Assembly (NCBI GenBank): GCA_963823335.1
Contig: CAWGLD010000007.1
Location: forward strand, 1-64,000
Direction: 5' to 3'
DNA from: an uncultured delta proteobacterium
Lineage (GTDB): Bacteria; Desulfobacterota; Desulfobacteria; Desulfobacterales; B30-G6
Length of the DNA stretch: 64,000 bases
The position numbers were made by a program, and so were the translations under genes. The stretch's first letter is position 1; each line of letters opens with the position of its first letter. The notes under the pieces are model-generated. The model saw only the letters and a list, made by a program, of their open reading frames with translations. It ran no database searches and was not told the DNA's origin. Below are positions 42,040 to 63,401 of the stretch, in pieces.

Positions 42040-42130
42040 ACCCGTAAGCCGGGGGAATACGCTCGCTGTTGCGGTTCAATATTACTTGTTCAAAATTGAA
42101 GAGCCTCGCAGCAAGCTACGAGAAATCTTC
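42040..42130 (+). repeat. Family-A fragments (right end followed by left end)
   Basis: GGGGAATACGCTCGCTGTTGCGGTTCAA and ATTGAAGAGCCTCGCAGCAAGCTACGAGAAATCTTC. Confidence 0.75.
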
Positions 42131-43192
42131 ATCGGATCGGTACAACCTTTCCGGGTTCGCCACCAGCGGCAGAGATTTTCGATCAGCATAATTCCGCGCA
42201 GATTCTACCCCCCCGGCCATGACGGGACAGGCCACCCAGTGGTCCGGATCGACTTCCATCAATTCCGGAACGGCCTTTGAACACTGGGCCACGGCAAAAT
42301 TGCATCGCGGGTGGAAGCGGCACCCGGATGGAGGATCGATGGCACTGGGAATTTCGCCCTGGGGAATTGCGTGCTTCCTTTTGAATTTCGGATCCGGAAC
42401 AGGAACGGCGGCCAACAGCGAAACCGTGTAGGGGTGAACCGGGTGCTTGAACACGGATTCCAGGGGACCGATTTCCATAATCTTTCCCAGATACATGATG
42501 GCAATCCTGTCACAGATGTACTTGCAGGTAGCCAGGTCATGGGTGATAAAAAGATAGGTCAGATCAAACTCATCTTTCAATTTTACCATCAACTCGAGAA
42601 TCATGGCACTCACGGAAACATCGGCCATGGCGATGGGCTCGTCCGCGACCACAAAATCCGGATTGGTAATCAGAGCCCGGGCGATAACCACACGCTGACG
42701 CTGCCCACCTGAGAGCTGGTGCGGGTATTTGTCATACAGAAACGACGCCGGCGACATGCCTACCTTCTCCATTATTTCCAGGGTGTGCCCACGAACTTCC
42801 GAGGTTCGCTGGTTTGAATGGATGGCCAGCGGGTGCCCAATGGAGTCACCGATGCGCATCCGCGGGTTCAATGAAGCAAAGGGGTCCTGAAAGATGATCT
42901 GCATGTTTTCCCGCATCTTGCGCATTTCTTCGGGTGAGGACTCGAAAAGGGGTTGCCCCCGGTAGAGAATCTGACCCGCGGTTGGATCCAGCAGCCGCAA
43001 TGCGAGGCGCCCCGTCGTGGTCTTACCACAACCGCTTTCACCGGCCAGGCCCAGTACCTCGCCTTGGCGGATGAAAAAGGAAACATCATCCACGGCCCGT
43101 ACCACCCGCTTCTCCTTTGTAAACAGATAGGAGAACAGTCCTGTATCCAGAGGGAAGTACTTTTTTAAATTTTTAACATCCAGTAGTTTCAT
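42116..43192 (-). CDS. Peptide/nickel-family ABC transporter ATPase (OppF-like)
   Basis: [34 protein letters not shown]. Confidence 0.93.
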
Positions 43193-43236
43193 GTTTTTTT
43201 TAGCCTATTGGCGATTTAGGCTGAAGACTATATCCT

Positions 43237-43361
43237 GTTTATTGTGTTCATTGTGTTCGTTGTGTTTATTGCGTTGCTCTCGGCAAAGGGTACACAGCTC
43301 TCAAACATGCCCCAGTTTCACCAACTCAATGAACCCAAGAAGCTCAACAAACTCAATGAAC
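43237..43361. repeat. Facing 9-mer tandem repeats forming a long imperfect inverted repeat
   Basis: GTTYATTGT x4 (43237-43276) facing CAATGAAC-type units (43322-43361). Confidence 0.7.
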
Positions 43362-43379
43362 TTCTTTTCCTTTGGACCC

Positions 43380-44339
43380 TCAGGTATATAACCAGCAGGC
43401 AGCCCGATGCCCGGTCGTCTGTCCCAGTTCAGGGTTTTTGTTTTTACAGATCTCCATCACCTGGGGACACCGGGGATTGAACACACACCCTCGCGGCGGG
43501 TCCACAAGGTCCGGGGGGGAGCCGGGCATGGTTTTCAATTTCGGTTGTTCCAGTTGAATGTTGGGAATGGATGCCAGCAGCCCCTGGGTGTAGGGATGCA
43601 TGGGATTTGCAAAAACATCTTCGGATACCCCGGTTTCCGCAATCCGCCCCCCGTACATGACGGTGATGCGGTCCGCCATCTGCGCTACGATGCCCAGGTT
43701 GTGCGAAATCAGGAGAATAGTCAGGTTGAAATCCGCCCTCAGTTCATTCAAAAGATCGAGAAACTGGGCCTCCACGATAACATCCAGAGCCGTGGTGGGT
43801 TCATCGGCAATCAATAGATCAGGGTTCAGAATCAATCCCATACCGATCATGATGCGCTGACGCATGCCCCCCGACATCTGATGGGGATATTCAAAGAGAC
43901 GTTCCCGGGCAATGCCCAGTCTTTCCAGCATGGCCCCTGCTTTCTCCAAAGCCTGTTTTCTGGACACCCCGGTTTTATGGGTTTGTATGGTTTCCACAAA
44001 TTGATCCCCGATCCTGAACAGTGGATTCAGCGATGTCAACGGGTCCTGGAAAATCATGGCGATCCGCTTTCCGCGAAGCGATAGGACATCCTTTGCACTC
44101 ATTTTGAGGATATCCTGATTGTGATAGGTGATCCTGCCCGCTGTAATTCTTCCAGGGGGTCTGAGCATTCTGATAATGGAAAATCCCAGGGTTGATTTTC
44201 CACAACCGGATTCCCCGACCAGCCCCATCACTTCACCCTTTTTCAGATTGAGGCTTACATTCTCCACCGCACGTACCGTACCGATATGAATGGGAAACTG
44301 TACGTCCAGATTTTCGATTTCCAATATATGATCTTGCAA
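43380..44339 (-). CDS. Peptide ABC transporter ATPase (OppD-like)
   Basis: GESGCGKST, FQDPLTSLNP, MSGGMRQR, DEPTTALD. Confidence 0.93.
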   Translation of the reverse strand: MQDHILEIENLDVQFPIHIGTVRAVENVSLNLKKGEVMGLVGESGCGKSTLGFSIIRMLRPPGRITAGRITYHNQDILKMSAKDVLSLRGKRIAMIFQDPLTSLNPLFRIGDQFVETIQTHKTGVSRKQALEKAGAMLERLGIARERLFEYPHQMSGGMRQRIMIGMGLILNPDLLIADEPTTALDVIVEAQFLDLLNELRADFNLTILLISHNLGIVAQMADRITVMYGGRIAETGVSEDVFANPMHPYTQGLLASIPNIQLEQPKLKTMPGSPPDLVDPPRGCVFNPRCPQVMEICKNKNPELGQTTGHRAACWLYT

Positions 44340-44340
44340 A

Positions 44341-45225
44341 CTAACGCTCCAATAACCGGGGGTTTAAAATCTCCGCCAGCCCTTCTCCCAGCATGGTAAA
44401 TCCAAGGGCCAGGATTGAAATCATGGCCCCAGGAAAAGTTATCAGCCACCACTGACCCGAAGGCAGATATTTCTTACCCATGGCCAGATCCATTCCCCAG
44501 TCCACGATACTGGGTGGAAGACCCAGACCCAGATATGTCAGCGCCGCCTCGATCATGATCGCGTCACCTATATTCATGGTAAACACCACCACGGTTGTGG
44601 CAATCACGTTGGGAAAGATATACTTCCACAATATGGTCATTCCCGGCGCCCCGATAGCGCGTGCGGCCTCCACATACAACTCTTCCTTGATGCTGAGTGT
44701 CTGACCCCGCACCAGACGAAAATAGGTTGGAATATAAATAACCGACACGGCCAGAGTGATGCTGATAATTCCCGGTTCCAGCATGGCGGCAAACGCAATG
44801 GCCAGAATGAGCCCTGGAAAGGAATAGACTGAATCCATGACCAGGGATAGACTCTTGTCAAAAATACCGCCGGAATACCCGGAGATCAACCCCAGGCTGA
44901 TGCCAATGAGCGAGGAAATAATGGCCGCCAGAATGGCCACCCCCAGAATGGTTCGCGATCCAAACACAATACGCGAAAACACATCCCGCTGCAGATTGTC
45001 CGTACCGAACAAATGATCGATTCCGGGTGGTGCCAGTTGCGGTCCGGCTTCCTGATCGTGGGGATCGAAGGGCGCGATGCTTGAGGCAAACATGGCCATA
45101 AAAAGAACCGATGCAACGATAATGGCCCCTGCCACCAGAATCCACCACTCCGCACCATACTGCCTGCCCATACCGACAAAACGGGCCAAAAGCTTTCCCA
45201 CGCCTGCTGAGGGAGAGTATTTCAA
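44341..45225 (-). CDS. Peptide ABC transporter permease (OppC/DppC-like)
   Basis: HLFGTD..RDVFSR, YVEAARAIGA. Confidence 0.92.
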   Translation of the reverse strand: MKYSPSAGVGKLLARFVGMGRQYGAEWWILVAGAIIVASVLFMAMFASSIAPFDPHDQEAGPQLAPPGIDHLFGTDNLQRDVFSRIVFGSRTILGVAILAAIISSLIGISLGLISGYSGGIFDKSLSLVMDSVYSFPGLILAIAFAAMLEPGIISITLAVSVIYIPTYFRLVRGQTLSIKEELYVEAARAIGAPGMTILWKYIFPNVIATTVVVFTMNIGDAIMIEAALTYLGLGLPPSIVDWGMDLAMGKKYLPSGQWWLITFPGAMISILALGFTMLGEGLAEILNPRLLER

Positions 45226-45237
45226 TCAATTTCCTCC

Positions 45238-45392
45238 AAAATAAATTGGCGACGCCAATTTATTTTCTCGTAATAGCCTTTTAGCGGTTTAGGCTAAGGA
45301 CTGTAGGCTGTTAGCCGCTTACAGCTTATTGCTTTCAGCTGTCAGCTACCCTCCAACCCTAGTATCACCCTTGTACCACCCTCGAACCCTTT
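45238..45392. repeat. Family-C half hairpin plus a family-D repeat
   Basis: AAAATAAATTGGCGACGCCAATTTATTTT; TAGCCTTTTAGCGG; TCAGCTACCCTCCAACCCTAGTATCACCC. Confidence 0.7.
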
Positions 45393-45394
45393 GT

Positions 45395-46411
45395 CTAGTA
45401 CCTCACCCGCGGATCTATCAGGGCATACACGATGTCCACCACCAGAGAAACCAGGGCTACAATCACCGCAAAAACAACGATCACCCCTTGAATGGTGGGG
45501 TAGTCCCGGAGATATATGCGCTCCAGCAGCAATCGTCCCATTCCGGGCCAGGAAAATGTTGTTTCCGTTAACACGGCACCTGCCATGAGAAGGGCTACCT
45601 GGAGACCCATCATGGTCAATATGGGAACAAAGGCGTTCAGCATGGCATGCTTGTATACAACCCGGCGATGCCGGATGCCCCTGGCCTCGGCCGCCAGTAT
45701 GTAATCCGATTTCAGCACATCGAGCATGTTGGCCCTGGTGAGCCGGATAAATATGCCTGACAGGGTCAAGCCCAGGGTAAAAGACGGCAGTATCAGATGG
45801 ATGAGAACATCTTTCAACGCCTCGAAATCTCTCACCAGAATAGTGTCCAGTATGTAGAAACCGGTTTTTTCGAACATGGACACGAACACCCGTGCACCGG
45901 TTCGGCCGGCCACCGGAAGCACATCCATCCAGACGCCGAAAATCATCTGTAGCATCAACCCCAGCCAATATACCGGGATACAGTATATGACGATGCCATA
46001 AAGTCGAATCGCATAATCCTGGGGAGATCTGCGTTTGTCGGCGGCATAGGCACCCAGTGTCACGCCCACCAGAAGTGTGATGAGCATGCCAAAAAAGGTG
46101 AGCTCCATGGTGGCCGGGATTTTCATCTTGATGGCATCCACGACACGCTCATTGAAAATCATAGAGTTGCCGAGATCAAAACGACAAATTTGCAACAGGT
46201 AGTCACCATATTGCACGATCAGTGGCCGGTTGAGCCCCAGCTCCTCTTTTTTCTGTTCGATGACGCTTTCAGGCGCATGGCCACCGAGCATGGAAGAGAC
46301 CGGGTCGCCGGGCATCACGCGAATCACCACAAAAACAATGCTCAAGAGGATAAAAAGCATGGGCAATGTCAGGAATGTCCGTGTAATGATGTATCGAATG
46401 AGATTTTTCAT
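45395..46411 (-). CDS. Peptide ABC transporter permease (OppB/DppB-like)
   Basis: MPGDP, DLGNS, HLILP, ETTFSWPGMG, RDYP, IDPRVRY. Confidence 0.93.
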   Translation of the reverse strand: MKNLIRYIITRTFLTLPMLFILLSIVFVVIRVMPGDPVSSMLGGHAPESVIEQKKEELGLNRPLIVQYGDYLLQICRFDLGNSMIFNERVVDAIKMKIPATMELTFFGMLITLLVGVTLGAYAADKRRSPQDYAIRLYGIVIYCIPVYWLGLMLQMIFGVWMDVLPVAGRTGARVFVSMFEKTGFYILDTILVRDFEALKDVLIHLILPSFTLGLTLSGIFIRLTRANMLDVLKSDYILAAEARGIRHRRVVYKHAMLNAFVPILTMMGLQVALLMAGAVLTETTFSWPGMGRLLLERIYLRDYPTIQGVIVVFAVIVALVSLVVDIVYALIDPRVRY

Positions 46412-46481
46412 CTATTGCGGGTCTGTGACGAAAAAAGCATGATATCCGCACACCTGGTACGGATATCATGCCTAAAGACAC

Positions 46482-48038
46482 TTATTTTGTGCGTTTGATG
46501 GGTGAATACATAAACTGCAATGTGGGAGAAATCATAATGCCTTCGATGTTTTTCTGGGAGAACAGATAAAGTGTTCCCTGAAAAATCGGGGCTGTGGGGA
46601 CTTCGTCGGTCCACATCTGCTGAACTGTCTTGTAGATGGCGGCTCTTTTGTTCTCATCCGCGTTTTTCTGTCCTTCCACAAACAAATTGTCCCAGACCTC
46701 GCTGGAAAAATAGATGCCGTTGCCTTTGGACCCGGCTGTTCCGGCAAAAGCGGCGGTGTAGTTGTCCGGGTCGATATAGTCCGGGTACCAGCCCAGAAGA
46801 TAAACCGGCATCAACTGCTCTCTCCAGTTATTTTTGTAGGTAGCCCACTCGGCGGATTTTACCGTTACATCGATTACACCGGTGGCCTCCAGTTGCGTCT
46901 TGATGACGGCTGCCATGTCCACTTCCGTATCACCATAATGGCTGGGTGTGTACCAGAATTCAAAGGTCAGCTTGTTGCTGCTGTTGAATCCTCTTGAACC
47001 CAGCAGCTCCTTGGCTTTGGCGATGTTGCCGTCGCCCCAGGTCGTTTTGAAATTATCCATGTGAGTCCACATGCCCATGGGGACCATGGAGTAGAGGGGT
47101 TCATTCTGTCCCAGAAAAACTTTTTTGATGATTTCAGGACGATTGAGTGCCGCGGCAACCCCCTGTCTTACGATTTTATCGTCAAACGGCGGGGTGTTGT
47201 TCTGAAAACAGAGATACCGGATATAGGGCCCCTGGCCTACGATGGTGTTAATTTTTGGTGATTTTTGCAGATCATTGATATCCGATGGATTGAAGGATTT
47301 GAATGCAAAATCAAGTTCACCCTTTTCCAGGGCAAGACGCATGGTGGTTGCATCCGCAAAATAACGTATGACCACCCGGTCATTCTTGGGTTTATCCCCC
47401 GAGAAATAGGGGTTGACATCCAGGATGATCTCTTCGTCCCGCTTGAAGGCAACCGCCTGATACTCTCCGAGGCCCACCAGTTTACCCCCTTTGAGATCGC
47501 TGGGGTTTTTCACAACCTTGTCGGCCGGGTAGACATTGGGATTGACCGGATAATAAGGTACCGTTGCCACGAGAGAAGGAAAATAGGCCACAGGGTTTTT
47601 CAGAATAAATTTCACGTTGTACTTATCGACAATGTCTACTCTCTCGACAAAATCCGTGACCAGCCAGGAAGGATCCCCGGCAATCCGGATAACCCTGTCG
47701 ATAGACCACTTGACCGCGTGAGAGTCGAAAGGTGTTCCATCCGAAAACTTGACACCCTCTTTCAACTTGAATGTATACTCTTTCCCGTCACTGCTGATGG
47801 TGTAGGATTCCGCCAGCCCGGGAACCAGATTGGTCTTCCCGGCAGGATAGCTCATCAGTCCCTGGTAGATATTGTAAAAAATTTCCCAGGTGTGAAAATC
47901 ATATGCATTACAAGGATCCATGTCCGTAACCTTTTCGGTGGTACCGTAAACCAGCGCCTGGCCCTTGGCAAAGCAATTACCGGACAGCAAAAAAACGGCC
48001 ATTACCAACACACTGAAAACAACTAACGTTTTTTTCAT
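46482..48038 (-). CDS. ABC transporter substrate-binding protein, family 5
   Basis: Signal peptide, PGLAESY, FKLKEGVKFSDGTPF, GWYPDYIDPDNY. Confidence 0.92.
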   Translation of the reverse strand: MKKTLVVFSVLVMAVFLLSGNCFAKGQALVYGTTEKVTDMDPCNAYDFHTWEIFYNIYQGLMSYPAGKTNLVPGLAESYTISSDGKEYTFKLKEGVKFSDGTPFDSHAVKWSIDRVIRIAGDPSWLVTDFVERVDIVDKYNVKFILKNPVAYFPSLVATVPYYPVNPNVYPADKVVKNPSDLKGGKLVGLGEYQAVAFKRDEEIILDVNPYFSGDKPKNDRVVIRYFADATTMRLALEKGELDFAFKSFNPSDINDLQKSPKINTIVGQGPYIRYLCFQNNTPPFDDKIVRQGVAAALNRPEIIKKVFLGQNEPLYSMVPMGMWTHMDNFKTTWGDGNIAKAKELLGSRGFNSSNKLTFEFWYTPSHYGDTEVDMAAVIKTQLEATGVIDVTVKSAEWATYKNNWREQLMPVYLLGWYPDYIDPDNYTAAFAGTAGSKGNGIYFSSEVWDNLFVEGQKNADENKRAAIYKTVQQMWTDEVPTAPIFQGTLYLFSQKNIEGIMISPTLQFMYSPIKRTK

Positions 48039-48362
48039 CCCTACCCCCTTCACATTAATCTGTTATGATGAAATACCCCGGTGCAGAAATCTTGCAGCCG
48101 CACCAAAACATTATAGTTGTAAATATAGAGTAGAAACAGGACGGGGTCAACAAAGAAGGTGTTGATTCGCAAGTTGAACCCATTATAACAAAAGCCTTAC
48201 ACGATTTTATTATCGTGCTTGTTTGATCTTATTTGCCGAAACAGTTTTGGAATGCTATCTTGACGCTCTGAGCCGCTACCCACGGAGCGGTTGGACCTTT
48301 CCGGGTCCTCCACCAGAGGTGTGGGTTTTAGATCAGAACAATAAAAATATTAGGACCGTATC

Positions 48363-52569: not shown

Positions 52570-53673
52570 TTATGTCATATAAACACCATATTTGTGAACA
52601 GCCTCAACGGCCGCTCGAACATTCTCCAAGGGGGTAGTTGGGCCGATGTTGCATAGATACAGGCAAAAGTGCCCGTTTTTCCCACCGATTTCGATGTACT
52701 GTTTCACCCGCTCGGCTACTTCCACGGGTTTACTCAAGGCCAGAAAACCGGCACCAATGCCAAGCACCAGAGCAACCCTGTTTTTTTCAGCATAGGCCTT
52801 GTAAACTGCAGGGCCGATTTTGGCCACATCTGGATCCTGACCTTCCACAAAATCCGGGCAAACCCGAAGCTTTAAATCGAGAAGTTCTTCAGGTCTTCGC
52901 AGATAACTTTCACCGACCCAGTTAGGCACATAAACCTGTGGACCGCAAATCTCCCGCAATCTGAGAATATAGGGGATAATCCAGTCCTGCAGAATAGAGG
53001 TGTTGACAATGGGCAACGAGGCCATTGCATCACTTCCGCATATACTCCGGGCTGTTGGAAACTTCTCTTTAAGGTAAAGGATCCAGGGGATGATCACATC
53101 TTCGGTAAACCGATCAAAAAGTTCCTTGGCAAAGGTGGGGTCCGTCATGATATCCATGATCAACCGTTCAACGCCTCGTGCATTCGCTGCCATGGTAAAG
53201 GGTGCACAAAAGTTCAGCGTCGGATCCTTATCGACCCACTCACGGTATAGGGTGTTCATTTCAACAACCATGGGGAAGCGCCCGTCTGTCGTGAAATCGG
53301 GCGTTTGGATCTTTTTCAGGTCATTCCAGTTTTTAATCAACGGGTCAGTGCGGTCAACATCAGGCGAATTATGCTTGCTGTAAATTATTTTCTGTCCAAT
53401 CGCCTCAACTTCAATATTGTAAATATCATAATCCAATAAAGGAACGTCCAGATCATATTTATGCGCCGTTGATAAAATTGCTGAAACCAGACATTGCGGA
53501 TCTGAAAAGAATTCCGGGGCATCGAGACCGGATTCTTTCATTGCCAGTTCATGAATTTGAGCAAAGACCGGAACCCGGTCCGGTATGCCTGTCAAGGCAT
53601 TTTCCAGACGGGTAATCCCTTCCTTAAAAAACGCATAATCGGGCGACCCGGCGCTGTTCAAGGAAGGTTTCAA
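52570..53673 (-). CDS. Uroporphyrinogen decarboxylase / MtaA-CmuA superfamily protein
   Basis: PDRVPV, EVEAIG, DGRFP, APFT.A..RG, TPLENVRA; abuts the upstream stop codon. Confidence 0.8.
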   Translation of the reverse strand: MKPSLNSAGSPDYAFFKEGITRLENALTGIPDRVPVFAQIHELAMKESGLDAPEFFSDPQCLVSAILSTAHKYDLDVPLLDYDIYNIEVEAIGQKIIYSKHNSPDVDRTDPLIKNWNDLKKIQTPDFTTDGRFPMVVEMNTLYREWVDKDPTLNFCAPFTMAANARGVERLIMDIMTDPTFAKELFDRFTEDVIIPWILYLKEKFPTARSICGSDAMASLPIVNTSILQDWIIPYILRLREICGPQVYVPNWVGESYLRRPEELLDLKLRVCPDFVEGQDPDVAKIGPAVYKAYAEKNRVALVLGIGAGFLALSKPVEVAERVKQYIEIGGKNGHFCLYLCNIGPTTPLENVRAAVEAVHKYGVYMT

Positions 53674-56136
53674 TTACATCCGTACCTTTTGACTCATGGG
53701 ATCATACATCGGTTCGAGGTGGATCTCGATGGGAAACAGCTTCCCGGCAACGTTGATTTCATAATCCCCCGCCATGATCCAGTCATCATCGATGCCATCG
53801 GAATGTTTCAGATAACACATTCCGATGGAGCACCCATACAGATGAGAATAGGCGCCATGGGTATTTTCACTCATCAGTTCCCCATTGCGATAGATGGGTT
53901 CATCATGGTAAACTAGCGGTTCGGGGTTTTTTAGTGAGAACATGACCAGCTTGCGTTTCAGACCGGTTTTCTTTTGCCGGGCCAGTGCCTCCTTACCCAG
54001 AAATGATGCTTTCTCCATTTTGACACAGAACCCCAACCCGGATTCGAAAGGTGTCTGATCCGGTGTAATGTCGGCCCCCCAGTGTTTGTAGCCCTTTTCC
54101 AATCGCAGGGAGTCCAGGGCATGCAGACCGACCAGCTGGAGGTTGTATTTTTCTCCTTCCGCCATCAGCGCATCAAAGACGTTATTTGAAAATTCTGTCG
54201 GTATGTACAGTTCCCACCCCAGTTCCCCGACAAACGACATGCGGATGGCCAGCGGTCTTGCATAGGCGACATTGATCTCTTGTGCGGTGGCAAACGGAAA
54301 CGCCGCGTTTGAAAGATCGGCATCGGTCAGATTTTGCAGAAATTCCCGTGCGTTCGGACCCATGACGGCGAGCATTGTGTAGCCGGAGGTCACCTCGGTC
54401 AGGGTCACGAAATCATTTTTCTTGATGTGACGATTTATGGTGTCGAAGTCCCGGACACCACAGGCACCCGGACTGACAATAAAGAATTTGTCTTCAGCCA
54501 GACGTGTAACCGTGATATCCGCTTCGATACCCCCCCGTTCGTTGAGCATCTGTGTGTAGACCACCTTACCAACCGGCACATCCACGTCATTGCAACAAGC
54601 ATATTGCAAGGTCTTCATGGCATCACGCCCCTGAACGAGAAATTTAGCCATGGAGGAGAGATCATAGACACCCAGATTTTCACGTACCGCCATATGCTCT
54701 GCAGCCGAGTATTCGAACCAGTTCTGGCGCCCCCAGCTGTATGCATATACCGGTGTTACACCCTCGGGAGCAAACCAGTTGGCACGCTCCCAGCCGGCCA
54801 CCACACCAAAGCAGGCACCGCGTTGTGCCAGTCTGTCGTGAAATGGCGTCTGACGGACATTTCTGGCGGTCTCCGGTTGTTTAAACGGCCAGTGATCCGC
54901 GTACAGATTGCCAACGGCTTCGATGACACGGTCGTGGACATAGCGCGTATTCTGCTGCCAACCGTAAAAACGCCGTACATCCACGGCCCACAGGTCTTCT
55001 TCGGGATAGCCCTGATCCATCCACTGGGCCAGTGCCCGGCCGGCGCCCCCCGCACTGGTGATGCCCACCGAATTCATACCGGTGGCTACAAAAAGGTTTT
55101 TGACACCGGGAACCTCACCCAGCATGTAAGCGGTATCGGGTGTAAAACTCTCCGGCACCGTTGTGAGGCTGTTAATTTCCGCTGTTTCAAAAGCCGGTAC
55201 TCTTTTTATCGCGTTTTTCATGAATATTTCGAATTGATCCCAGTCTTCCTGGAGCTGGGTATATTGAAAATTTTCCGGAATACCCTGCATACCCCAGGGC
55301 TTGGCCACCGGTTCAAAACCGCCCATAAGAAGACCGCCCATCTCCTCCTTGATATAGATATAGCCATCCATATCCCGCACATACGGCATCCCCTTGTAGG
55401 TTCCCTCCATGGGATTGGTGGTCATGTGCATGTGTTCGGCAGCATACAGCGGAAAGCTGGCACCCATCATCTTACCCAATTCACGCGACCACATACCAGT
55501 GCAATTGACCAGAAATTCACATGCAATGTCCCCCTGGTCGGTGGTAAGCCCGCTGACGGTGTCCAGCCCTGAGACGATGCCGGGTTTAAAATGGACGCCG
55601 GTTACCTTGACGTTCTCGATGAATCTGGCACCACCTTTTCTGGCGCCCTTGGCCAATGCCTGGGTTGTATCTTCGGGGTTGGTGTGTCCGTCGTTCGGCT
55701 GGAACCATGCTGCTTCAAGATCGTCGGTATGCAGCAGGGGAAACAATCTTCGGGCTTCTGTCAGGCTGATTTCTTCCATTTCAATGCCGAATGCACGCGC
55801 CATCTGCATGGATCGATCATATTCTTCTTTGCGTGCCTTGGTCTGTGCGACCCGGATGGAACCAGGACGCTGATAACCCGTAGGCTGCCCGGTCTCCTCT
55901 TCCAGACGGGAATAAAGATCCGCGCCGTAAACAGCGAGTTTGGTCAAGGCGGCATTCGACCAGAGCTGGCCCAGCAAGCCTGCTGCAGCCCAGGTCGTTC
56001 CGGATGCAATCGTTTTACGCTCCACAACCACGACATCCTTCCAGCCTAATTTACACAAGTGGTAAGCGACACTGCAACCGACAATACCACCCCCGACAAT
56101 GACAACCTGCGCGTGTGTGGGTAACTGTTCTGCCAT
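53674..56136 (-). CDS. FAD-dependent oxidoreductase with a GcvT/THF domain (dimethylglycine/sarcosine dehydrogenase family)
   Basis: GGGIVG, SGTTWAAAG, PESFTPD, GWERANWF, GELGWELY, SLRLEKGY; GGAGG RBS before 56136. Confidence 0.9.
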   Translation of the reverse strand: MAEQLPTHAQVVIVGGGIVGCSVAYHLCKLGWKDVVVVERKTIASGTTWAAAGLLGQLWSNAALTKLAVYGADLYSRLEEETGQPTGYQRPGSIRVAQTKARKEEYDRSMQMARAFGIEMEEISLTEARRLFPLLHTDDLEAAWFQPNDGHTNPEDTTQALAKGARKGGARFIENVKVTGVHFKPGIVSGLDTVSGLTTDQGDIACEFLVNCTGMWSRELGKMMGASFPLYAAEHMHMTTNPMEGTYKGMPYVRDMDGYIYIKEEMGGLLMGGFEPVAKPWGMQGIPENFQYTQLQEDWDQFEIFMKNAIKRVPAFETAEINSLTTVPESFTPDTAYMLGEVPGVKNLFVATGMNSVGITSAGGAGRALAQWMDQGYPEEDLWAVDVRRFYGWQQNTRYVHDRVIEAVGNLYADHWPFKQPETARNVRQTPFHDRLAQRGACFGVVAGWERANWFAPEGVTPVYAYSWGRQNWFEYSAAEHMAVRENLGVYDLSSMAKFLVQGRDAMKTLQYACCNDVDVPVGKVVYTQMLNERGGIEADITVTRLAEDKFFIVSPGACGVRDFDTINRHIKKNDFVTLTEVTSGYTMLAVMGPNAREFLQNLTDADLSNAAFPFATAQEINVAYARPLAIRMSFVGELGWELYIPTEFSNNVFDALMAEGEKYNLQLVGLHALDSLRLEKGYKHWGADITPDQTPFESGLGFCVKMEKASFLGKEALARQKKTGLKRKLVMFSLKNPEPLVYHDEPIYRNGELMSENTHGAYSHLYGCSIGMCYLKHSDGIDDDWIMAGDYEINVAGKLFPIEIHLEPMYDPMSQKVRM

Positions 56137-56451
56137 GGGAACCTCCTGCATGGAATCTGAACGATTGGGTAACACTTTAAAAAGAATCATTACAATGGTT
56201 AATGCTTCAACTTTCGGTTTTCACCATCGATAGAGCGAAATGGGTGATCCAATGGCGATTTGCGCTGTTTGAGGCGCTTAGGGATTCTCACATCAGCGCA
56301 TGAAAATAAACATCCAACATGAAAACCTGTCCATTTGGAAACCATGCCTGTTTAACCATATGACCAGCGCTGATGTTAGAAGTCCTTTCGGCGAGTTCGC
56401 AAAGCGCCAGGGGATTATTCATTTCGTGTTCGCTGAACCCATGAAGTTGAG

Positions 56452-57921
56452 TTAACCCACGCCCTGCTCTTTCTCGGCTTCGTCAACGATCTCCCGAATG
56501 TCCTGGAGCACGCTGTCTGAGAGCTGCGGCGGTTCGTACGTCTCCAGGATATCGATCATCTTGTCGTGTGCACGCTGGTAGAGGTCTGTGCTGCCGTCCG
56601 CCTCCCAGTCTTCGCGCATGCGCCGGTCCATCAGTTCGGCTCGGGATTGCGATGCCCTATGTTGATACGTTGATTCATGGGCCAGGTAGTCTTTTCCGAT
56701 GCCCATCTCCCTGATAATGTCCACCGCCAAGGTCTCTTCGTTGACGGGTATACCTTTTACGGTATATTTAATCATTTCTGCAATTTCATTGTCGATGACC
56801 AGCTGTGCTAAATCAAAGGTGATTCCCATTTCGAGCATTCCCAGGCCGTATATGACGTTGGCTCCTGCCAGCGCCGGTAAAATGCCTGTAATGGTCTTTT
56901 CATGTCCCGACTGGGCATCGACCACCTTGCTGTCGCCCTAACCACCGGCGACGAAACACGGCAGACTGTAATAACGCGCCAGCCTTGCGACCGCGGCACT
57001 GATCATACCGGTTTCCGGCGATCCAACGGTTGCGGTAGCCCGGCGCAGGTCCAGCGGGCAGGTGGAGCTGCCATACATAAAGGGAGAGCCCTTGCGGCTC
57101 AGCTGGCTCAGCACCAGGCTGGAAAGCACTTCACAGTTCTGCACAACCAGGGTTCCCGCAAGGTGGATCGGAGCGGAACCCCCGGACATGGCCATGCCGA
57201 TAACGTTCACCCCCAGACCGTGCCTGGCCGCGCCCATGATGATCTCGCAATGGTGATCCGTAAGCTTCAACGGGCTGATGGGGCAGGTGGTAAACGAGAG
57301 CAGCGGCCGTTCTCTCAGCTTCTCCTTGCTTCCTGAAATGGCCACGCATATGTCTACAATTTTCTCCAACTGAAACCCGTTGACCGGGCCCAGCCAGTGA
57401 TGCTTGGTGGTGTTGGTCAGAGAAGCTTCCGCATTGTGGATCGCCTGGACCTCCGGCGGTTTGTCGTGCGAACACATAGCGCGCTCGTAAGTCTCCACGT
57501 TCTCCAGATAATCGATGAGGCGTGACGCTTTTTCGATGTCCGCCTTGGTGGTGTCGCGGTGTTCACCTGTATCGGGATCGACAAAGACAATCCCTTCACC
57601 AAAATTGGTAAACGTCACCCGGTTGTCCTCCAGCACCACGTCACTCTCAGGAATTCTTCCATAGGCAATAAACGTGGCCGGTGCGGTATGAATGGCATCC
57701 TCTACGACAAAATGGGGAATTTTTACGGTGCTACTTTTTGCATCAACCGTACAGCCCGCCCCGTGGTATATTTCAAGGGCTTTTTCATTTTCGACGAATA
57801 CACCGGTATTACTCAAAACTTCCAGTGTCGCCAGATGAATTTCATGAAGCTCGTCATCGGTCATGAGATTGAGACTGAATCCGCTGTTGCGTTTGATACC
57901 GGCTTTTGGTCTACGTTTCAT
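56452..57921 (-). CDS. mttB: Trimethylamine:corrinoid methyltransferase MttB, predicted pyrrolysine-containing (TAG at codon 328)
   Basis: One frame reading VAGG-TAG-GDSKVVDAQSGHEKT; 489 aa with readthrough, colinear with the adjacent paralog; AAGGAGG RBS. Confidence 0.9.
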
Positions 57922-57951
57922 AGTGCCTCCTTGCTCGCCCTATATTTGATT

Positions 57952-59433
57952 TTATTTCTTTTTTTTCACTTCCATCTCGTATGCGTCGACAATCTCTTTC
58001 ATGGCCTCGGAGACTTTGTCAGGCAGGGCATAGGGCTTATGATTTTCAAGGATGTCGATGGCTTTTGCATAAGCGCGATCCCTGATACTTTTGCCTTGCG
58101 TTACATCCATCCAGTCACCCCGCGAGCGTCTGTCGAACAGTTCGACCCGGGATTGGCTCCTCATGTAACGGAGATTCTGTTCGTGGGTGATGTAAGCGCC
58201 GCCGGGGCCGACCTCGTGTATGACATCCATGGCCAGGGTCTCGTCATTGACGACGACACCCCCGAGCGCGATTTGAATCATACGGATCATCTCCGCATCC
58301 ATGATCAGCTTGGCGTAGTCCATGGTGAGTCCCTGTTCCAGAACGCCGGAACCGAAGATGATGTTCCCGCCTGAAAGCGCACTCAGCGTAGCGCTCAGGG
58401 TAAATTCATAACCGGATTGGATATCCGGCTCTTTGCTGTCCGATGCACCGCCGCCCACCCAGCCGGGCAGTCGGTAGTACTGGGCCATTTTGGCAAGCGA
58501 TGCGTTGATCATACCATACTCGGGAGAACCGATGGCGGAGGTGCCGAATCTCAAATCCAGAATCGTGCTGGTGCTGCCATAGGTGCAGGGCAAACCTTTT
58601 TTCACCAACTGGGCCAGGGCGATGGTTGCCAGGACTTCGGCATTGTGGGTTACCAAGGTACCTGCCAGGGAAGCGCTGGCTGTTCCACCGGAGAGAGCCA
58701 TGGGTATGATGAGAATCCCCAATCCGAGCCGGGCGCTCTCTATGATGACGTCGCAGGTATTTTCTCCAAGGGTAAGCGGACTGATGGGGCAGACGTTGAC
58801 CGTAAAAATGGGTCGTTTCTGAAATATTTCCTTGCCACCCACGCACGCCGATGCGAGTTCGACCATTACCTGCAGGGACCTTGCCGAATCTGCACCGAGA
58901 AAGATATGCTTACCGGTGTTGGCCAACATGGCTTCGAGATTGTGCAGAGACTGTGTGCCATCCATGACATCTGTCGAGTTGACCATGCGCTCGGCTACAC
59001 TGATCTCGTCCAGATAGTCGCCTACCCGGACCAGTTCACCACAGTCCTTTTTGGTCGCCCGCCGAACTTTTTTGGTATAGGGATCGATAACGTTGATGCA
59101 GCCGCCGAATGTGGTAAATCCAACACGGTTGGGCTCCATAATAAAGTCGTCGGCTGGGTTCCTGGCATCGTACACAAATGTGTGCGGGGACCTGAAAGCG
59201 GACTCCTCCACCAGAAACGATGGAATTCTCACGATCCCGAAACCCTCATACCTCTCCACCATGGCACCGCCGCCGTGAAATATTTCGAGTGCCTCCTCGC
59301 TCATCACCTTTATCCCGGTGTCCTGGAGGATTTGCAGGGTTGCATAGTGGATCGAATCAAGCTCGTCCCGTGATAATGAGCTCAGCCCCAAGCCCGAAGA
59401 TGCACTGATTCCACTTCTGAAACGTCTTTTCAT
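57952..59433 (-). CDS. MttB-superfamily methyltransferase without pyrrolysine
   Basis: LAGTLVTHNAEVL, YGSTSTILDL, GSPE, WVGGGASDSK; no internal stop; likely start MKRRF at 59433. Confidence 0.9.
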   Translation of the reverse strand: MKRRFRSGISASSGLGLSSLSRDELDSIHYATLQILQDTGIKVMSEEALEIFHGGGAMVERYEGFGIVRIPSFLVEESAFRSPHTFVYDARNPADDFIMEPNRVGFTTFGGCINVIDPYTKKVRRATKKDCGELVRVGDYLDEISVAERMVNSTDVMDGTQSLHNLEAMLANTGKHIFLGADSARSLQVMVELASACVGGKEIFQKRPIFTVNVCPISPLTLGENTCDVIIESARLGLGILIIPMALSGGTASASLAGTLVTHNAEVLATIALAQLVKKGLPCTYGSTSTILDLRFGTSAIGSPEYGMINASLAKMAQYYRLPGWVGGGASDSKEPDIQSGYEFTLSATLSALSGGNIIFGSGVLEQGLTMDYAKLIMDAEMIRMIQIALGGVVVNDETLAMDVIHEVGPGGAYITHEQNLRYMRSQSRVELFDRRSRGDWMDVTQGKSIRDRAYAKAIDILENHKPYALPDKVSEAMKEIVDAYEMEVKKKK

Positions 59434-59924: not shown

Positions 59925-60881
59925 ATGAATACAATTCTCAGTTTGGTACTCAAACGACTGGCATTTGGTCTGGTGACCATTATCGTTATCTCAGTTTTAA
60001 TTTTTATCGGGGTGGAGGCGTTGCCCGGAGATCTGACCGAGGCAATTTTGGGACAAAGCGCTTTGCCTGAGACAATAGCGGCCTTTCGCAGGGAACTGAA
60101 ACTGGATCTTCCCCCGCATATCCGCTATTTCGCCTGGCTGGGTGATATAATGCACGGAAACCTCGGCAATTCCCTGGCGAACGGGAGGCCCATTGCTGAT
60201 CTGGTTGGCTGGCGATTTGCCAATACGCTCTTTCTGGCGTCCTCAGCAGCCGTGGTTGCCGTGCCCTTCGCTATTATGCTGGGTATCCTCGCTGCGCTAT
60301 ATCGCAACAGCTTGTTTGACCGGGCCATTTCCATCGCTACACTCAGTACTATTTCCTTTCCCGAGTTCTTTGTGGCCTATATTTTGGTGGCGTTGCTCTC
60401 GGTCAAATTGGTTGTGTTTCCCAGTATTTCAAATATCAACGACGGTATGGCATTTTGGGAAAAGATTCGAGCAATTGTCCTGCCCTGTTTGACCCTGACA
60501 CTGGTGGTTGTCGCTCACATGATGAGACAGACACGTGCGGCCATCATCAACATCCTGGCCAGTCCCTTCATTGAAATGGCTCATCTGAAAGGCATAAAAC
60601 GGTTACGGGTTATCGTGGTGCACGCTTTTCCGAACGCTCTCTCGCCCGTGATCAATGTGGTTGCGTTGAATCTGGCCTATCTGGTTGTGGGTGTGGTGAT
60701 TGTGGAGGTCGTTTTTGTCTATCCGGGTCTGGGGCAGTTGCTGGTGGATTCAGTCTCCAAACGAGATCTTCCGGTCGTACAGGCAAGTTGTCTCATTTTT
60801 GCCGTGATCTACATTAGTCTAAACTTGCTCGCTGACGTACTGTCTATTATCAGTAATCCTCGCATGCGAAATCCTCGATAA
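59925..60881 (+). CDS. Peptide/nickel-family ABC permease (DppB-like)
   Basis: LPGD, GNLGNS, EVVFVYPGLG, RDLPVVQ. Confidence 0.92.
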   Translation: MNTILSLVLKRLAFGLVTIIVISVLIFIGVEALPGDLTEAILGQSALPETIAAFRRELKLDLPPHIRYFAWLGDIMHGNLGNSLANGRPIADLVGWRFANTLFLASSAAVVAVPFAIMLGILAALYRNSLFDRAISIATLSTISFPEFFVAYILVALLSVKLVVFPSISNINDGMAFWEKIRAIVLPCLTLTLVVVAHMMRQTRAAIINILASPFIEMAHLKGIKRLRVIVVHAFPNALSPVINVVALNLAYLVVGVVIVEVVFVYPGLGQLLVDSVSKRDLPVVQASCLIFAVIYISLNLLADVLSIISNPRMRNPR

Positions 60882-60893
60882 GGAGAGCATTCA

Positions 60894-61718
60894 ATGGCGG
60901 TTTTCAAATTATTGAGACAATCACCCTGGAGCGCACGATGCGGCATAGCTATCGTGCTGCTCAATATTGGCGCCGCAATACTCGCACCGGTGGTGGCACC
61001 TTATGGTGAGACTGAAATAACAGGCGATGTCTGGATGTCCATGAGCGGCGACCATCTACTGGGTACCGATCACCTGGGGAGAGACCTGTTCACACGCCTG
61101 CTTTATGGCGCCCGCAACACCATTGCAATCGCTTTTATTACCACCATGCTTTCGTTTGTGGTCGGAACTGTGTGCGGTTTTTTTGCAGCGACGCTGAAAG
61201 GATGGGTCGATCAACTTCTCAGTCGCCTGGTTGACATTCTCATGGCGTTTCCGACCCTCATTTTTGCTTTAATGGCCTTGTCCGTGGTCGGGACATCCAT
61301 TGGTGCCTTGATCCTGGTGATCGCACTGTTGGACTCGACCCGGGTTTACCGCTTGTCACGCGCTGTGGCAATGGACATCGCCGTCATGGAATATGTTGAG
61401 GCTGCACGGCTGCGTGGTGAAAAAACCTGGTGGCTCATGCGCCAAGAAATCCTGCCCAACGCCATGCCGCCACTCGTGGCCGAATTTGGCCTGCGGTTCT
61501 GTTTCGTATTTTTGTTCATCGCCGCATTGTCCTTTCTGGGTCTTGGCATCCAACCGCCTATGGCGGACTGGGGCGGCATGGTCCGGGAAAATTCCGGTGC
61601 GATCACGTTTGGCATTTTCATTCCCTTGTGGCCGGCCGGGGCAATCGCTTTTCTGACAGTGGGTGTCAATTTAATCGTCGACTGGTTTCTACATGTCGCC
61701 AGCGGTTTGAAAGATTAG
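60894..61718 (+). CDS. Peptide/nickel-family ABC permease (DppC-like)
   Basis: HLLGTDHLGRDLF, EYVEAARLRGE, SFLGLGIQPP. Confidence 0.92.
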   Translation: MAVFKLLRQSPWSARCGIAIVLLNIGAAILAPVVAPYGETEITGDVWMSMSGDHLLGTDHLGRDLFTRLLYGARNTIAIAFITTMLSFVVGTVCGFFAATLKGWVDQLLSRLVDILMAFPTLIFALMALSVVGTSIGALILVIALLDSTRVYRLSRAVAMDIAVMEYVEAARLRGEKTWWLMRQEILPNAMPPLVAEFGLRFCFVFLFIAALSFLGLGIQPPMADWGGMVRENSGAITFGIFIPLWPAGAIAFLTVGVNLIVDWFLHVASGLKD

Positions 61719-61745
61719 CCATCAAGCTTATGATACGGTGAATAG

Positions 61746-63401
61746 ATGACGCAATTATTAGAGATGAAAGATATCTGGATTGAGGGATTCAGCGACGAAA
61801 AATGGCGGCCCATCATCAACGGCCTGAACCTTACCTTGGACAAAGGGGAAGTGCTGGGTTTAATCGGGGAATCCGGGGCCGGAAAATCAACCTTCGGCCT
61901 GGCTTCCATGGCTTATACCCGTCAGGGCTGCCGTATATCTTCCGGGTCCATCCTGTTCGATGGCATCGAACTGTTTGGAGCGTCGGAGAAGACCTTGAGA
62001 AAAATCAAAGGTGTTCGGATCGCCTATGTAGCCCAAAGTGCCGCGGCCTCTTTTAACCCGGCGCACCGGCTCATTAAGCAGTATGCAGAGGCTCCCGTTC
62101 AGCACCATATCATGTCCTTTGCAGAGGCTGAAAAGGAGGCCTTCGATATTTATAAACGGCTGCTGCTGCCGGATCCGGAACGCATCGGATACCGGTATCC
62201 GCACCAGGTGTCCGGTGGACAACTGCAACGTGCCATGGTTGCCATGGCAATGGCGTGCAAGCCGGACCTTATCATTTTTGACGAACCGACCACCGCACTG
62301 GATGTGACAACCCAGATTGAAGTTTTGGCCGCAATAAAACGCATCACCCGGCAATTCAATACAGCGGCCATTTACATCACCCATGACCTGGCTGTGGTGG
62401 CCCAGTTGGCAGACCGGATCATGGTGTTGCGCTATGGCAATTTGGTGGAAGAAAACAATGCCCGCCAATTGATTGCCCATCCGAAAGAGGAATACACCCG
62501 TGCCCTTCTTTCCGTCCGAACACTTCGAGAAGACAAGGACCTTTCAAAGACAGAACATGATACCATTCTGGAGGTCGAAAACGTCTCTGCAAGTTACACG
62601 GGCAAGGAGCTGGTCTTACAGGACATAGACCTGATAATCCGGCGTGGCCGGACCGTGGCGCTGGTGGGAGAATCGGGCAGCGGGAAAAGCACCCTGGCCC
62701 GGGTGATCACCGGGTTGCTTCCACCCCTCAAAGGTCGTGTCATTTATGACGGCCAGGATCTGCCACCGGCTTTAAGAAAGCGCAAAAAGGAAAGTCTCAG
62801 GGTGATGCAGATGATTTACCAGATGCCGGACACGGCCCTGAATCCCAGGCAACGGGTCAGCAGGATCATTGGACGCCCCCTTCAGTTTTACTATGGCATT
62901 CATGGCAAGGAGGCCGAGAAACGCGTTCTTGAGTTATTGGATAAGATCGAATTGACGCCAAAATACAAAGATCGATTTCCAGGAGAGCTCTCTGGTGGAG
63001 AAAAGCAACGGATTTGCATTGCGCGTGCTCTGGCAGCCGAACCCGATCTTATTATTTGTGATGAGGTCACCTCCGCCTTAGATCAGCTTGTGGCTGAAGA
63101 TATTTTGAAGCTGCTGCGCAAGCTCCAAAATGACCTGCAGGTGTCATATCTTTTTATTACCCATGATCTGGCCACAGTTAAAGCCATAGCGGATGAAATT
63201 GTGGTCATGCTGCAGGGCAAGATCGTGGAACAGGGCCGTAAAACGGATATTCTGACACCACCTCACCATGAATATACCGACCTGCTGCTGGAATCGGTCC
63301 CGGAGATGGACCCGGATTGGCTCGACGGCGTGCTGGCCGAAAGGGAACGCAAATCCGCCATGGGCATTGCCGTGAAGACAACCTTTATCGAAGAATCTTG
63401 A
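61746..63401 (+). CDS. ABC transporter ATPase with two fused ABC domains
   Basis: GESGAGKST and GESGSGKST; two signature motifs. Confidence 0.93.
   Translation: MTQLLEMKDIWIEGFSDEKWRPIINGLNLTLDKGEVLGLIGESGAGKSTFGLASMAYTRQGCRISSGSILFDGIELFGASEKTLRKIKGVRIAYVAQSAAASFNPAHRLIKQYAEAPVQHHIMSFAEAEKEAFDIYKRLLLPDPERIGYRYPHQVSGGQLQRAMVAMAMACKPDLIIFDEPTTALDVTTQIEVLAAIKRITRQFNTAAIYITHDLAVVAQLADRIMVLRYGNLVEENNARQLIAHPKEEYTRALLSVRTLREDKDLSKTEHDTILEVENVSASYTGKELVLQDIDLIIRRGRTVALVGESGSGKSTLARVITGLLPPLKGRVIYDGQDLPPALRKRKKESLRVMQMIYQMPDTALNPRQRVSRIIGRPLQFYYGIHGKEAEKRVLELLDKIELTPKYKDRFPGELSGGEKQRICIARALAAEPDLIICDEVTSALDQLVAEDILKLLRKLQNDLQVSYLFITHDLATVKAIADEIVVMLQGKIVEQGRKTDILTPPHHEYTDLLLESVPEMDPDWLDGVLAERERKSAMGIAVKTTFIEES

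Follow-up and report, generated by a model that had tools for sequence, protein, structure and literature searches.

A pyrrolysine-free MttB paralog paired with a pyrrolysine-type mttB gene in an uncultured member of the Desulfobacterales

The MttB superfamily has thousands of members and six known substrates, and the known substrates of the members that lack pyrrolysine (Pyl) are all acidic quaternary amines. Here we describe a pair of MttB-family genes in a 64,000-nucleotide stretch of DNA from a marine sediment bacterium, an uncultured delta proteobacterium of the order Desulfobacterales (contig CAWGLD010000007.1, positions 1 to 64,000; hereafter, the window). The upstream gene, P0001, encodes alanine at the position of pyrrolysine, and the downstream gene, P0002, has an in-frame TAG there. 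The closest described systems are the Pyl-containing trimethylamine (TMA) methyltransferase MttB of M. barkeri (PDB 7XCL/7XCM/7XCN; NCBIfam equivalog TIGR02369) and the non-Pyl methyltransferase MtgB of D. hafniense (PDB 2QNE/9YCE).

In M. barkeri MttB, Pyl334 is hydrogen bonded through water to Tyr364, its proton-shuttle partner, which is fully conserved in 66 Pyl MttBs and required for the full rate: the Y364F substitution reduced Vmax from 48 to 1.7 per min. The same enzyme has a cis peptide at Gly110-Thr111, and its Met249 shifts to let TMA in (PMC9842639). In MtgB, Y97 and F356 bind the quaternary nitrogen by cation-pi contacts and R312 and H348 bind the carboxylate; the same R312 is reported for every non-Pyl member characterised so far, and each of these acts on acidic substrates (PMC13080624). 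MtcB, MtpB, MtyB, and MthB of Eubacterium limosum demethylate quaternary amines (carnitine, proline betaine, gamma-butyrobetaine, and phosphocholine) and form no TMA (PMC12155760).

Non-Pyl homologs have been noted before. Zhang and Gladyshev (2007) reported more than 10 in the Olavius delta-1 symbiont (PMC1976440), one protein of which is 70% identical to P0001. In marine Deltaproteobacteria, Kivenson et al. (2021) described a non-Pyl "putative glycine betaine methyltransferase" within the Pyl-mttB locus and additional copies in other parts of the genome (PMC8318568). The present locus likewise has a non-Pyl MttB homolog beside a Pyl mttB gene in the same kind of organism, and the pairing was thus partly anticipated by that study. 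In the available text of that paper, the name is given by analogy only, and no analysis of pocket residues, clade placement, or pair conservation appears (PMC8318568). A full-text literature search, with subscription journals outside its scope, returned no paper on a Pyl-proximal, Arg-less clade or its substrate.

P0001 belongs to the lineage nearest to the Pyl TMA methyltransferases. Most likely, with a probability of about one half, it is an active, Pyl-independent corrinoid methyltransferase (MT1) for a non-acidic quaternary amine. The original prediction, made from the sequence alone, had offered three possibilities for the upstream copy: a Pyl-lineage enzyme that lost Pyl and changed substrate, a Pyl-independent backup, and a partner subunit. 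Among these, a changed substrate fits the residue pattern best. The P0001 clade is the nearest Pyl-free relative of the Pyl enzymes, lacks the acid-binding Arg, and lies beside Pyl mttB/mtbB in marine sulfate-reducer-type bacteria. Producible in E. coli without pyl genes, P0001 offers an easy test case for the roles of the residues around pyrrolysine. It is also a test case for which non-TMA amine feeds sediment pathways, where such bacteria compete with methanogens for methylamines.

The gene pair and its place in the MttB family

Both genes are on the minus strand in the same orientation, as read from the sequence and its translations:

57952..59433, minus strand: P0001, non-pyrrolysine MttB-family methyltransferase, ATG to TAA, 493 amino acids, no internal stop
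56452..57921, minus strand: P0002, Pyl-type trimethylamine methyltransferase MttB, 489 codons with a single in-frame TAG
56938..56940, minus strand: in-frame TAG of P0002, codon 328
58444..58446, minus strand: GCA codon, Ala330 of P0001, aligned with M. barkeri MttB Pyl334 and with the P0002 TAG
57922..57951, minus strand: spacer between P0001 and P0002, exactly 30 nt, with AAGGAGG ahead of the P0002 ATG

BLASTP aligned the two proteins with 221 identities in 488 positions (45%; E = 2e-146), and the Ala in VGGG-A-SDSK of P0001 faced the TAG position in VAGG-O-GDSK of P0002. The original prediction of co-oriented MttB genes 30 nt apart, with GCA opposite TAG, is therefore borne out by the sequence, the translations, and BLASTP. 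The common N-terminus that it listed, MKRR..G...SG..L...DEL..IH.ATL, is real in both genes and general to this family branch, as it also occurs in M. barkeri MttB and in further paralogs.

P0001 scored 307.4 bits against PF06253 over profile positions 33-494 of 500, and P0002 scored 294 bits (cut-off, 25), both matches taking in the whole profile. Among solved structures (PDB phmmer), P0001 matched M. barkeri MttB with 328 bits and MtgB with 229 bits; the corresponding values for P0002 were 429 (7xcm) and 236 bits. The AF2 model of P0001 had a pLDDT (predicted local distance difference test score) of 94.1, and Foldseek gave TM (template modelling) scores of 0.93 to 7xcl and 0.91 to 9yce. P0001 has the fold and length of MttB at 37% identity, together with its N-terminal arm. 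It shares the fold of MtgB at 30% identity, but residue 19-20 of P0001 is where the alignment with MtgB begins, which leaves the arm outside. Two motifs had been put forward as signs of the Pyl clade. One of them, LAGTLVTHNAEVL, is identical in M. barkeri MttB; the other, YGSTST, is uninformative, its counterparts being YGSTSA in MtgB and YGSSTT in MttB.

On TIGR02369, the equivalog for Pyl TMA methyltransferases (cut-off, 525), P0001 scored 592.1 bits and P0002 718 bits. The six TAG-bearing paralogs of the genome scored 553, 580, 687, 718, 718, and 765 bits, so that P0001 fell within their range and above two of them. Because TIGR02369 is blind to pyrrolysine, the P0001 score shows closeness and not function. 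The same profile passes TAG-free P0001, P0122, P0123, P0125, P0129, P0116, and P0039 at 531-609 bits, and JGI calls their relatives TMA methyltransferase. Automatic annotation thus cannot separate Pyl from non-Pyl forms, and metagenome "mttB" counts may include enzymes unable to use TMA. Protein cluster names were limited to generic "trimethylamine--corrinoid protein Co-methyltransferase" labels.

Trees were built from 160 distinct MttB-family sequences, with TAG read as X, from this genome, 40 relatives' genomes, and 77 public loci fetched with a Pyl-MttB alignment. They were built without archaeal or Firmicutes sequences, and the relatives of P0002 fetched for them were all bacterial. In the FastTree tree of all 160 rows, a 129-row clade (support, 99) contained all TAG-bearing rows together with a TAG-free clade of 27 rows (99). 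The TAG-free clade comprised a 17-row P0001 clade and a 10-row sister group whose site residue is I, V, H, or A, and it was placed after a Pyl paralog (95). IQ-TREE (LG+C20 with posterior mean site frequencies [PMSF], quick search, 68 chosen rows) returned the same groups, with support of 96 for the corresponding 57-row clade. Its base was without resolution, and the TAG-free clade was sister to one Pyl row at 88. In an approximately unbiased (AU) test, a tree with all Pyl rows monophyletic was not rejected (log-likelihood difference, 5.0; p = 0.364).

Given the AU result and the IQ-TREE base, both Pyl loss and a pre-Pyl sister position are compatible with the trees for the P0001 clade, and the FastTree placement was dropped as phylogenetic proof of Pyl loss. 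The prediction that the upstream copy is nearer to the Pyl clade than to MtgB has held in the structure matches, in TIGR02369, and in its shared clade with all Pyl rows. As for the further possibility of a Pyl-lineage enzyme that lost Pyl, closeness to the lineage stands, and the loss does not have the backing of the AU test.

Two other TAG-free genes bear on the replacement of pyrrolysine. In a metagenome-assembled genome (MAG) of the Thermoleophilia, an MttB gene with Val at the site (L126:717-2168, plus strand) is nested in a Thermoleophilia Pyl clade (97) and lies in tandem with a TAG-bearing copy. It has Phe in place of Tyr364 and retains His346, Lys348, and Met368. By its position in the tree, this gene is a clear separate loss of pyrrolysine, with Phe at 364 as in the P0001 clade. 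P0127, a metagenomic protein representative, has Trp at the Pyl column, keeps Tyr364, and scores 663 bits on TIGR02369; it may be a very recent pyrrolysine replacement, TGG being one step from TAG.

Residues around the pyrrolysine site

Residue roles were taken from the papers cited above and mapped through pairwise alignments of P0001 to 7xcl and 9yce. Two further codons of P0001 matter here:

58354..58356, minus strand: Phe360 codon, at MttB Tyr364 (alignment to 7xcl)
58459..58461, minus strand: Trp325 codon, at MtgB Arg312 (alignment to 9yce)

Much of the MttB active-site region is retained. P0001 has Gly110, Gly111, Met245 (M. barkeri Met249), Trp325 (Tyr329), Ala330 (Pyl334), and Phe360 (Tyr364), and its clade keeps Met245 and an aromatic residue at 325. 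The Gly110 column holds Gly in 83 and Ser in 17 of the 101 Pyl rows; position 111 differs, with Glu changed to Gly in P0001 and Thr at that place in M. barkeri. Sixty-four positions are identical and at least 97% conserved between the P0001 clade and the Pyl rows, including SDSK..D.Q.G.E after the site. With MtgB, P0001 shares the loop form GGG-x-[SN]DSK and a Tyr at the position of His346.

The P0001 clade differs systematically from the Pyl enzymes at positions around pyrrolysine. The Pyl column of its 17 rows holds Ala in 14, Thr in 2, and Gly in 1. Position 360 (MttB Tyr364) is Phe in 17/17 rows and Tyr in 101/101 TAG-bearing rows; P0002 has Tyr at this column. Position 364 (Met368) is Val in 16/17 and Met in 101/101, position 342 (His346) is Tyr in 17/17 and His in 93/101, and position 344 (Lys348) is Phe in 15/17 and Lys in 96/101 rows of the two groups, respectively. 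Tyr342 and Lys375 of the P0001 clade may be ancestral, since these states also occur in MtgB or in the Pyl paralog that branches earliest.

P0001 retains the TIM barrel and N-terminal arm of MttB, as well as Met249 and an aromatic side chain at 329 (M. barkeri numbering). The residues serving pyrrolysine are swapped as a set for small or aromatic ones: Pyl334 to Ala/Thr/Gly, Tyr364 to Phe, His346 to Tyr, Lys348 to Phe, and Met368 to Val. The result would be a hydrophobic, aromatic pocket for the amine, as judged from sequence positions only. If the amine is already quaternary, the Pyl adduct would not be needed. Since such a pocket would lack an arginine to hold an acidic group, a non-acidic methylammonium compound would be the probable substrate. 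Glycine betaine would then be a less likely candidate than, for example, tetramethylammonium or a choline-type compound. The methyl group would reach folate by way of a corrinoid protein that the adjacent Pyl-MttB and MtbB systems also use.

The betaine pocket of MtgB is absent from P0001. In place of Y97, R312, H348, and F356, it has Gly110, Trp325, a gap, and Gly368, respectively (0/4 residues kept), in an MtgB numbering mapped by hand from one pairwise HMMER alignment with an offset of 2 inferred from three residues. The R312 column is Trp, Phe, or Tyr in 17/17 rows of the P0001 clade. MtcB, MtpB, MtyB, and MthB are, like P0001, non-Pyl members of the superfamily, but Arg is reported for them (PMC13080624) where P0001 has Trp, a comparison made via the MtgB alignment only. 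P0001 was thus found neither to group with MtgB (229 versus 328 bits for MttB) nor to hold its pocket.

These residues bear most directly on the possibility that P0001 is a glycine-betaine-type methyltransferase for an acidic quaternary amine, whose product, dimethylglycine, would be oxidised by a dimethylglycine dehydrogenase (DMGDH)-like flavoprotein encoded downstream. Such an enzyme would accord with the label given by Kivenson et al. (2021) to the non-Pyl gene in the Pyl-mttB locus (PMC8318568) and with the substrates of all six members characterised besides MttB, which are acidic quaternary amines (PMC12155760). With none of the four pocket residues kept, the conserved Arg aromatic throughout the clade, and a match to MtgB that is 100 bits below the match to MttB, we consider it unlikely.

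A TMA (or dimethylamine [DMA]) methyltransferase that works without Pyl, as a backup when pyrrolysine or UAG read-through is limiting, would have to hold protonated trimethylammonium in the aromatic pocket. The kept Met249 and aromatic residue at 329, the score over the TMA methyltransferase equivalog cut-off, and the constant presence of the P0001 type in TMA/DMA methyltransferase clusters with corrinoid proteins all suit this idea. It is nonetheless quite improbable, given that Tyr364 is Phe in every row of the clade, the very change that slowed MttB (PMC9842639), and that His346 and Lys348 are replaced too; moreover, the full-text literature searched, subscription journals excepted, held no case of TMA use by a non-Pyl member. 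If the P0001 type did demethylate TMA without pyrrolysine, then pyrrolysine would not be chemically indispensable for that reaction, and the clade would record a Pyl enzyme arising from, or reverting to, a 20-amino-acid form.

Conservation, selection, and presence in RNA libraries

Orthologs of P0001 (≥74% identity) were found in 10 of 40 other genomes, all in the family of the window's genome: 7/9 congeners and 3/4 genomes of a second genus. At the Pyl site, these orthologs have Ala, Thr, Gly, or Cys. A TAG inside the ortholog of one genome (G001) was considered and rejected, as it is a stop codon only. In nine of the ten carriers, the P0002 ortholog is next on the same strand; the contig of the tenth, only 2949 nt long, is too short to tell. 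Conservation of the pairing in relatives had been named beforehand as a test of the prediction, and the pair was kept in these 9/10.

In seven further MAGs, at most 3 kb separate a P0001-clade gene from a Pyl mttB gene of a different subclade, with a corrinoid protein gene in 6/7 and a Pyl mtbB gene in 3/7; as these loci were fetched via the Pyl gene, the adjacency there is by construction. A TAG-free MttB-family gene lies beside a Pyl gene in at least 30 of the 77 public loci, and mixed Pyl/non-Pyl neighbourhoods are therefore common.

The recurrent pairing raises the possibility that P0001 is a partner subunit in mixed dimers or hexamers with P0002, serving as a scaffold or corrinoid-protein-binding modulator with little or no catalysis. 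The conserved order upstream of Pyl mttB and the 30-nt spacer in the window agree with this, as do the kept N-terminal arm and C-terminal loop region, which in M. barkeri MttB build the D3 hexamer and help to hold MttC (PMC9842639). Among relatives, however, the gap ranges from ~20 to 640 nt (from hidden Markov model envelope ends), so tight coupling of the two genes is not conserved; in two loci (L073 and L075), a corrinoid gene lies between them, and the adjoining Pyl gene comes from different Pyl subclades in different genomes. The active-site stretch is conserved, with the 64 positions common to the Pyl forms, and the swapped residues are fixed rather than drifting, unlike what would be expected of a dead subunit. 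Taken together, these observations make a partner subunit improbable.

P0001 is under purifying selection and has been kept. Pairwise ratios of nonsynonymous to synonymous substitution rates (dN/dS) against the window copy were 0.055-0.139 for P0001 orthologs from 9 distinct genomes (four further rows were duplicates of these) and 0.029-0.082 for P0002 orthologs; the values are rough, since dS was often >1. The orthologs of P0001 are 74-87% identical to the window copy and those of P0002 87-98%. Full-length open frames occur in 9/10 relatives with a P0001 ortholog, and public data hold more than 100 protein clusters at least 69% identical to P0001. In one relative (G005; L041, L062), the P0001 ortholog is broken between two overlapping frames, with an intact P0002 ortholog (98%) beside it; a pseudogene or an assembly error would account for this.

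In 4/4 estuary metatranscriptome libraries (independent samples), both genes are covered by contigs of ≥95% identity, and one contig of 830 nt (57212-58041) spans the 30-nt spacer. Such contigs are no proof of a single transcript, and carried-over DNA may contribute to them. No difference was listed in them at the TAG or the GCA codon. Their sequence diverges right past the P0002 stop (window ~56441-56462), so that what follows the pair differs among close strains.

The split ortholog and the lower conservation of P0001 than of P0002 are what would be expected of a decaying duplicate without a function of its own. Set against the low dN/dS, the open frames in 9/10 relatives, the many public clusters, and the presence of the gene in RNA libraries, such decay is highly improbable.

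The host genome and the neighbourhood of the pair

The window is positions 1-64000 of contig C7 of a 4.37-Mb genome in 11 contigs. This genome is able to decode UAG as pyrrolysine: it contains pylS (C-terminal domain, 326.6 bits; cut-off, 178), pylD (251 bits), and a tRNA-Pyl(CUA) gene at C2:80111-80184. It also has tRNA-Sec. Twenty-six PF06253 matches were found, from which 21 near-full-length MttB-family genes were taken. Six of these have an in-frame TAG aligned to the Pyl column, and the other 15 are TAG-free. The TAG-free paralogs have A, V, S, C, G, T, M, N, or L there. A family-wide search gave 6914 matches at E ≤ 0.001, and the 134 listed matches of ≥440 amino acids that were inspected (50%-identity representatives) had almost any residue at the Pyl column. 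Alanine at this site is therefore not unusual in itself.

Beside the pair, the window holds the following:

53674..56190, minus strand: 838-amino-acid dimethylglycine/sarcosine-dehydrogenase-like flavoprotein (DAO + FAO_M + GCV_T + GCV_T_C), downstream of the pair
52570..53673, minus strand: URO-D family protein (PF01208, 84 bits; TIGR01463, 52 bits, below the cut-off of 235)
59925..63401, plus strand: divergent Opp/Dpp-type ABC transporter, two permeases and a fused double ATPase (profile matches)
56841..56940, minus strand: Rfam PYLIS_3 match in P0002, from its TAG (75.6 bits; gathering, 38; no non-standard pairs)
58347..58446, minus strand: Rfam PYLIS_3 match in P0001, from exactly the GCA codon (45.3 bits; gathering, 38)

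The flavoprotein had no NCBIfam equivalog match. Its gene also follows the pair in a relative's locus (L063), and DAO-type starts follow it in two others (L064 and L066), with electron transfer flavoprotein (ETF) genes in L064; a betaine-type enzyme would find its next step in such genes. Against this, the DMGDH-like gene is inconstant: a binding-protein gene follows the pair in L065, mtbB comes first in L066, and the estuary contigs diverge. The URO-D protein is a candidate distant MtaA/CmuA-like methylcorrinoid-to-acceptor methyltransferase. In L063 and L066, too, the pair is preceded by this divergent permease.

Several observations weigh against a non-acidic quaternary amine as the substrate or against an active MT1 at this locus. 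No corrinoid protein gene was found near the pair or in its operon, and the genome has only four corrinoid (B12-binding_2) protein genes, one of them at C2:80683-80898, for ~21 MttB-family genes, so that corrinoid proteins must serve many MT1 enzymes. The DMGDH-like gene after the pair, here and in some relatives, would suit a route from betaine to dimethylglycine. Demethylation of a quaternary amine yields TMA only if the substrate is tetramethylammonium, and the steady link to TMA/DMA genes is thus only partly explained. To these are added the split ortholog of G005, the variable gap between the two genes, the hand-made MtgB numbering, the derivation of the pocket from sequence positions, and the limits of the RNA-library contigs given above.

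A relic PYLIS element in P0001 was considered and rejected, as 5/8 model pairs are non-standard. PYLIS_3 also matched other Pyl-proximal non-Pyl genes and 0/11 distant paralogs searched, and we read the P0001 match as coding similarity rather than retained RNA structure. The Rfam scan of the window gave no cobalamin riboswitch or other family besides the two PYLIS_3 matches, and promoter and terminator scans of the window were at chance level. Elsewhere, Rfam PYLIS_2 matches adjoin several other MttB loci (L002, L003, L006, and L010).

Past the window end, the same island continues with a sulfatase gene, two copies of Pyl mtbB, a Val-bearing paralog, ETF genes, and dehydrogenases. The two MtbB genes of locus L060 (L060:2471-3520, plus strand; L060:16992-18038, minus strand) have open reading frames that end at ~349/463 profile positions, as expected for an in-frame TAG. 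The Val-bearing TAG-free MttB paralog (L060:4178-5650, plus strand, equal to G000 C7:67178-68650) lies ~3 kb past the window end, directly after a Pyl mtbB gene and downstream of the ABC transporter and a sulfatase gene. It is 44% identical to P0001, has Phe in the 364 column and Arg where MtgB has R312, and may take an acidic quaternary amine, e.g., a choline ester of sulfate or phosphate.

On contig C5, a group II intron D1-D4-6 match (L017:942-1136; 87.5 bits) adjoins a distant MttB-like paralog. ABC transporters of the Opp/Dpp type (SBP_bac_5) recur next to genes of the MttB family, at window positions 42116-48053 (minus strand) and 59925-63401 (plus strand) and at L061:2001-3590 and L065:4668-6269, whereas betaine-type transporters do not.

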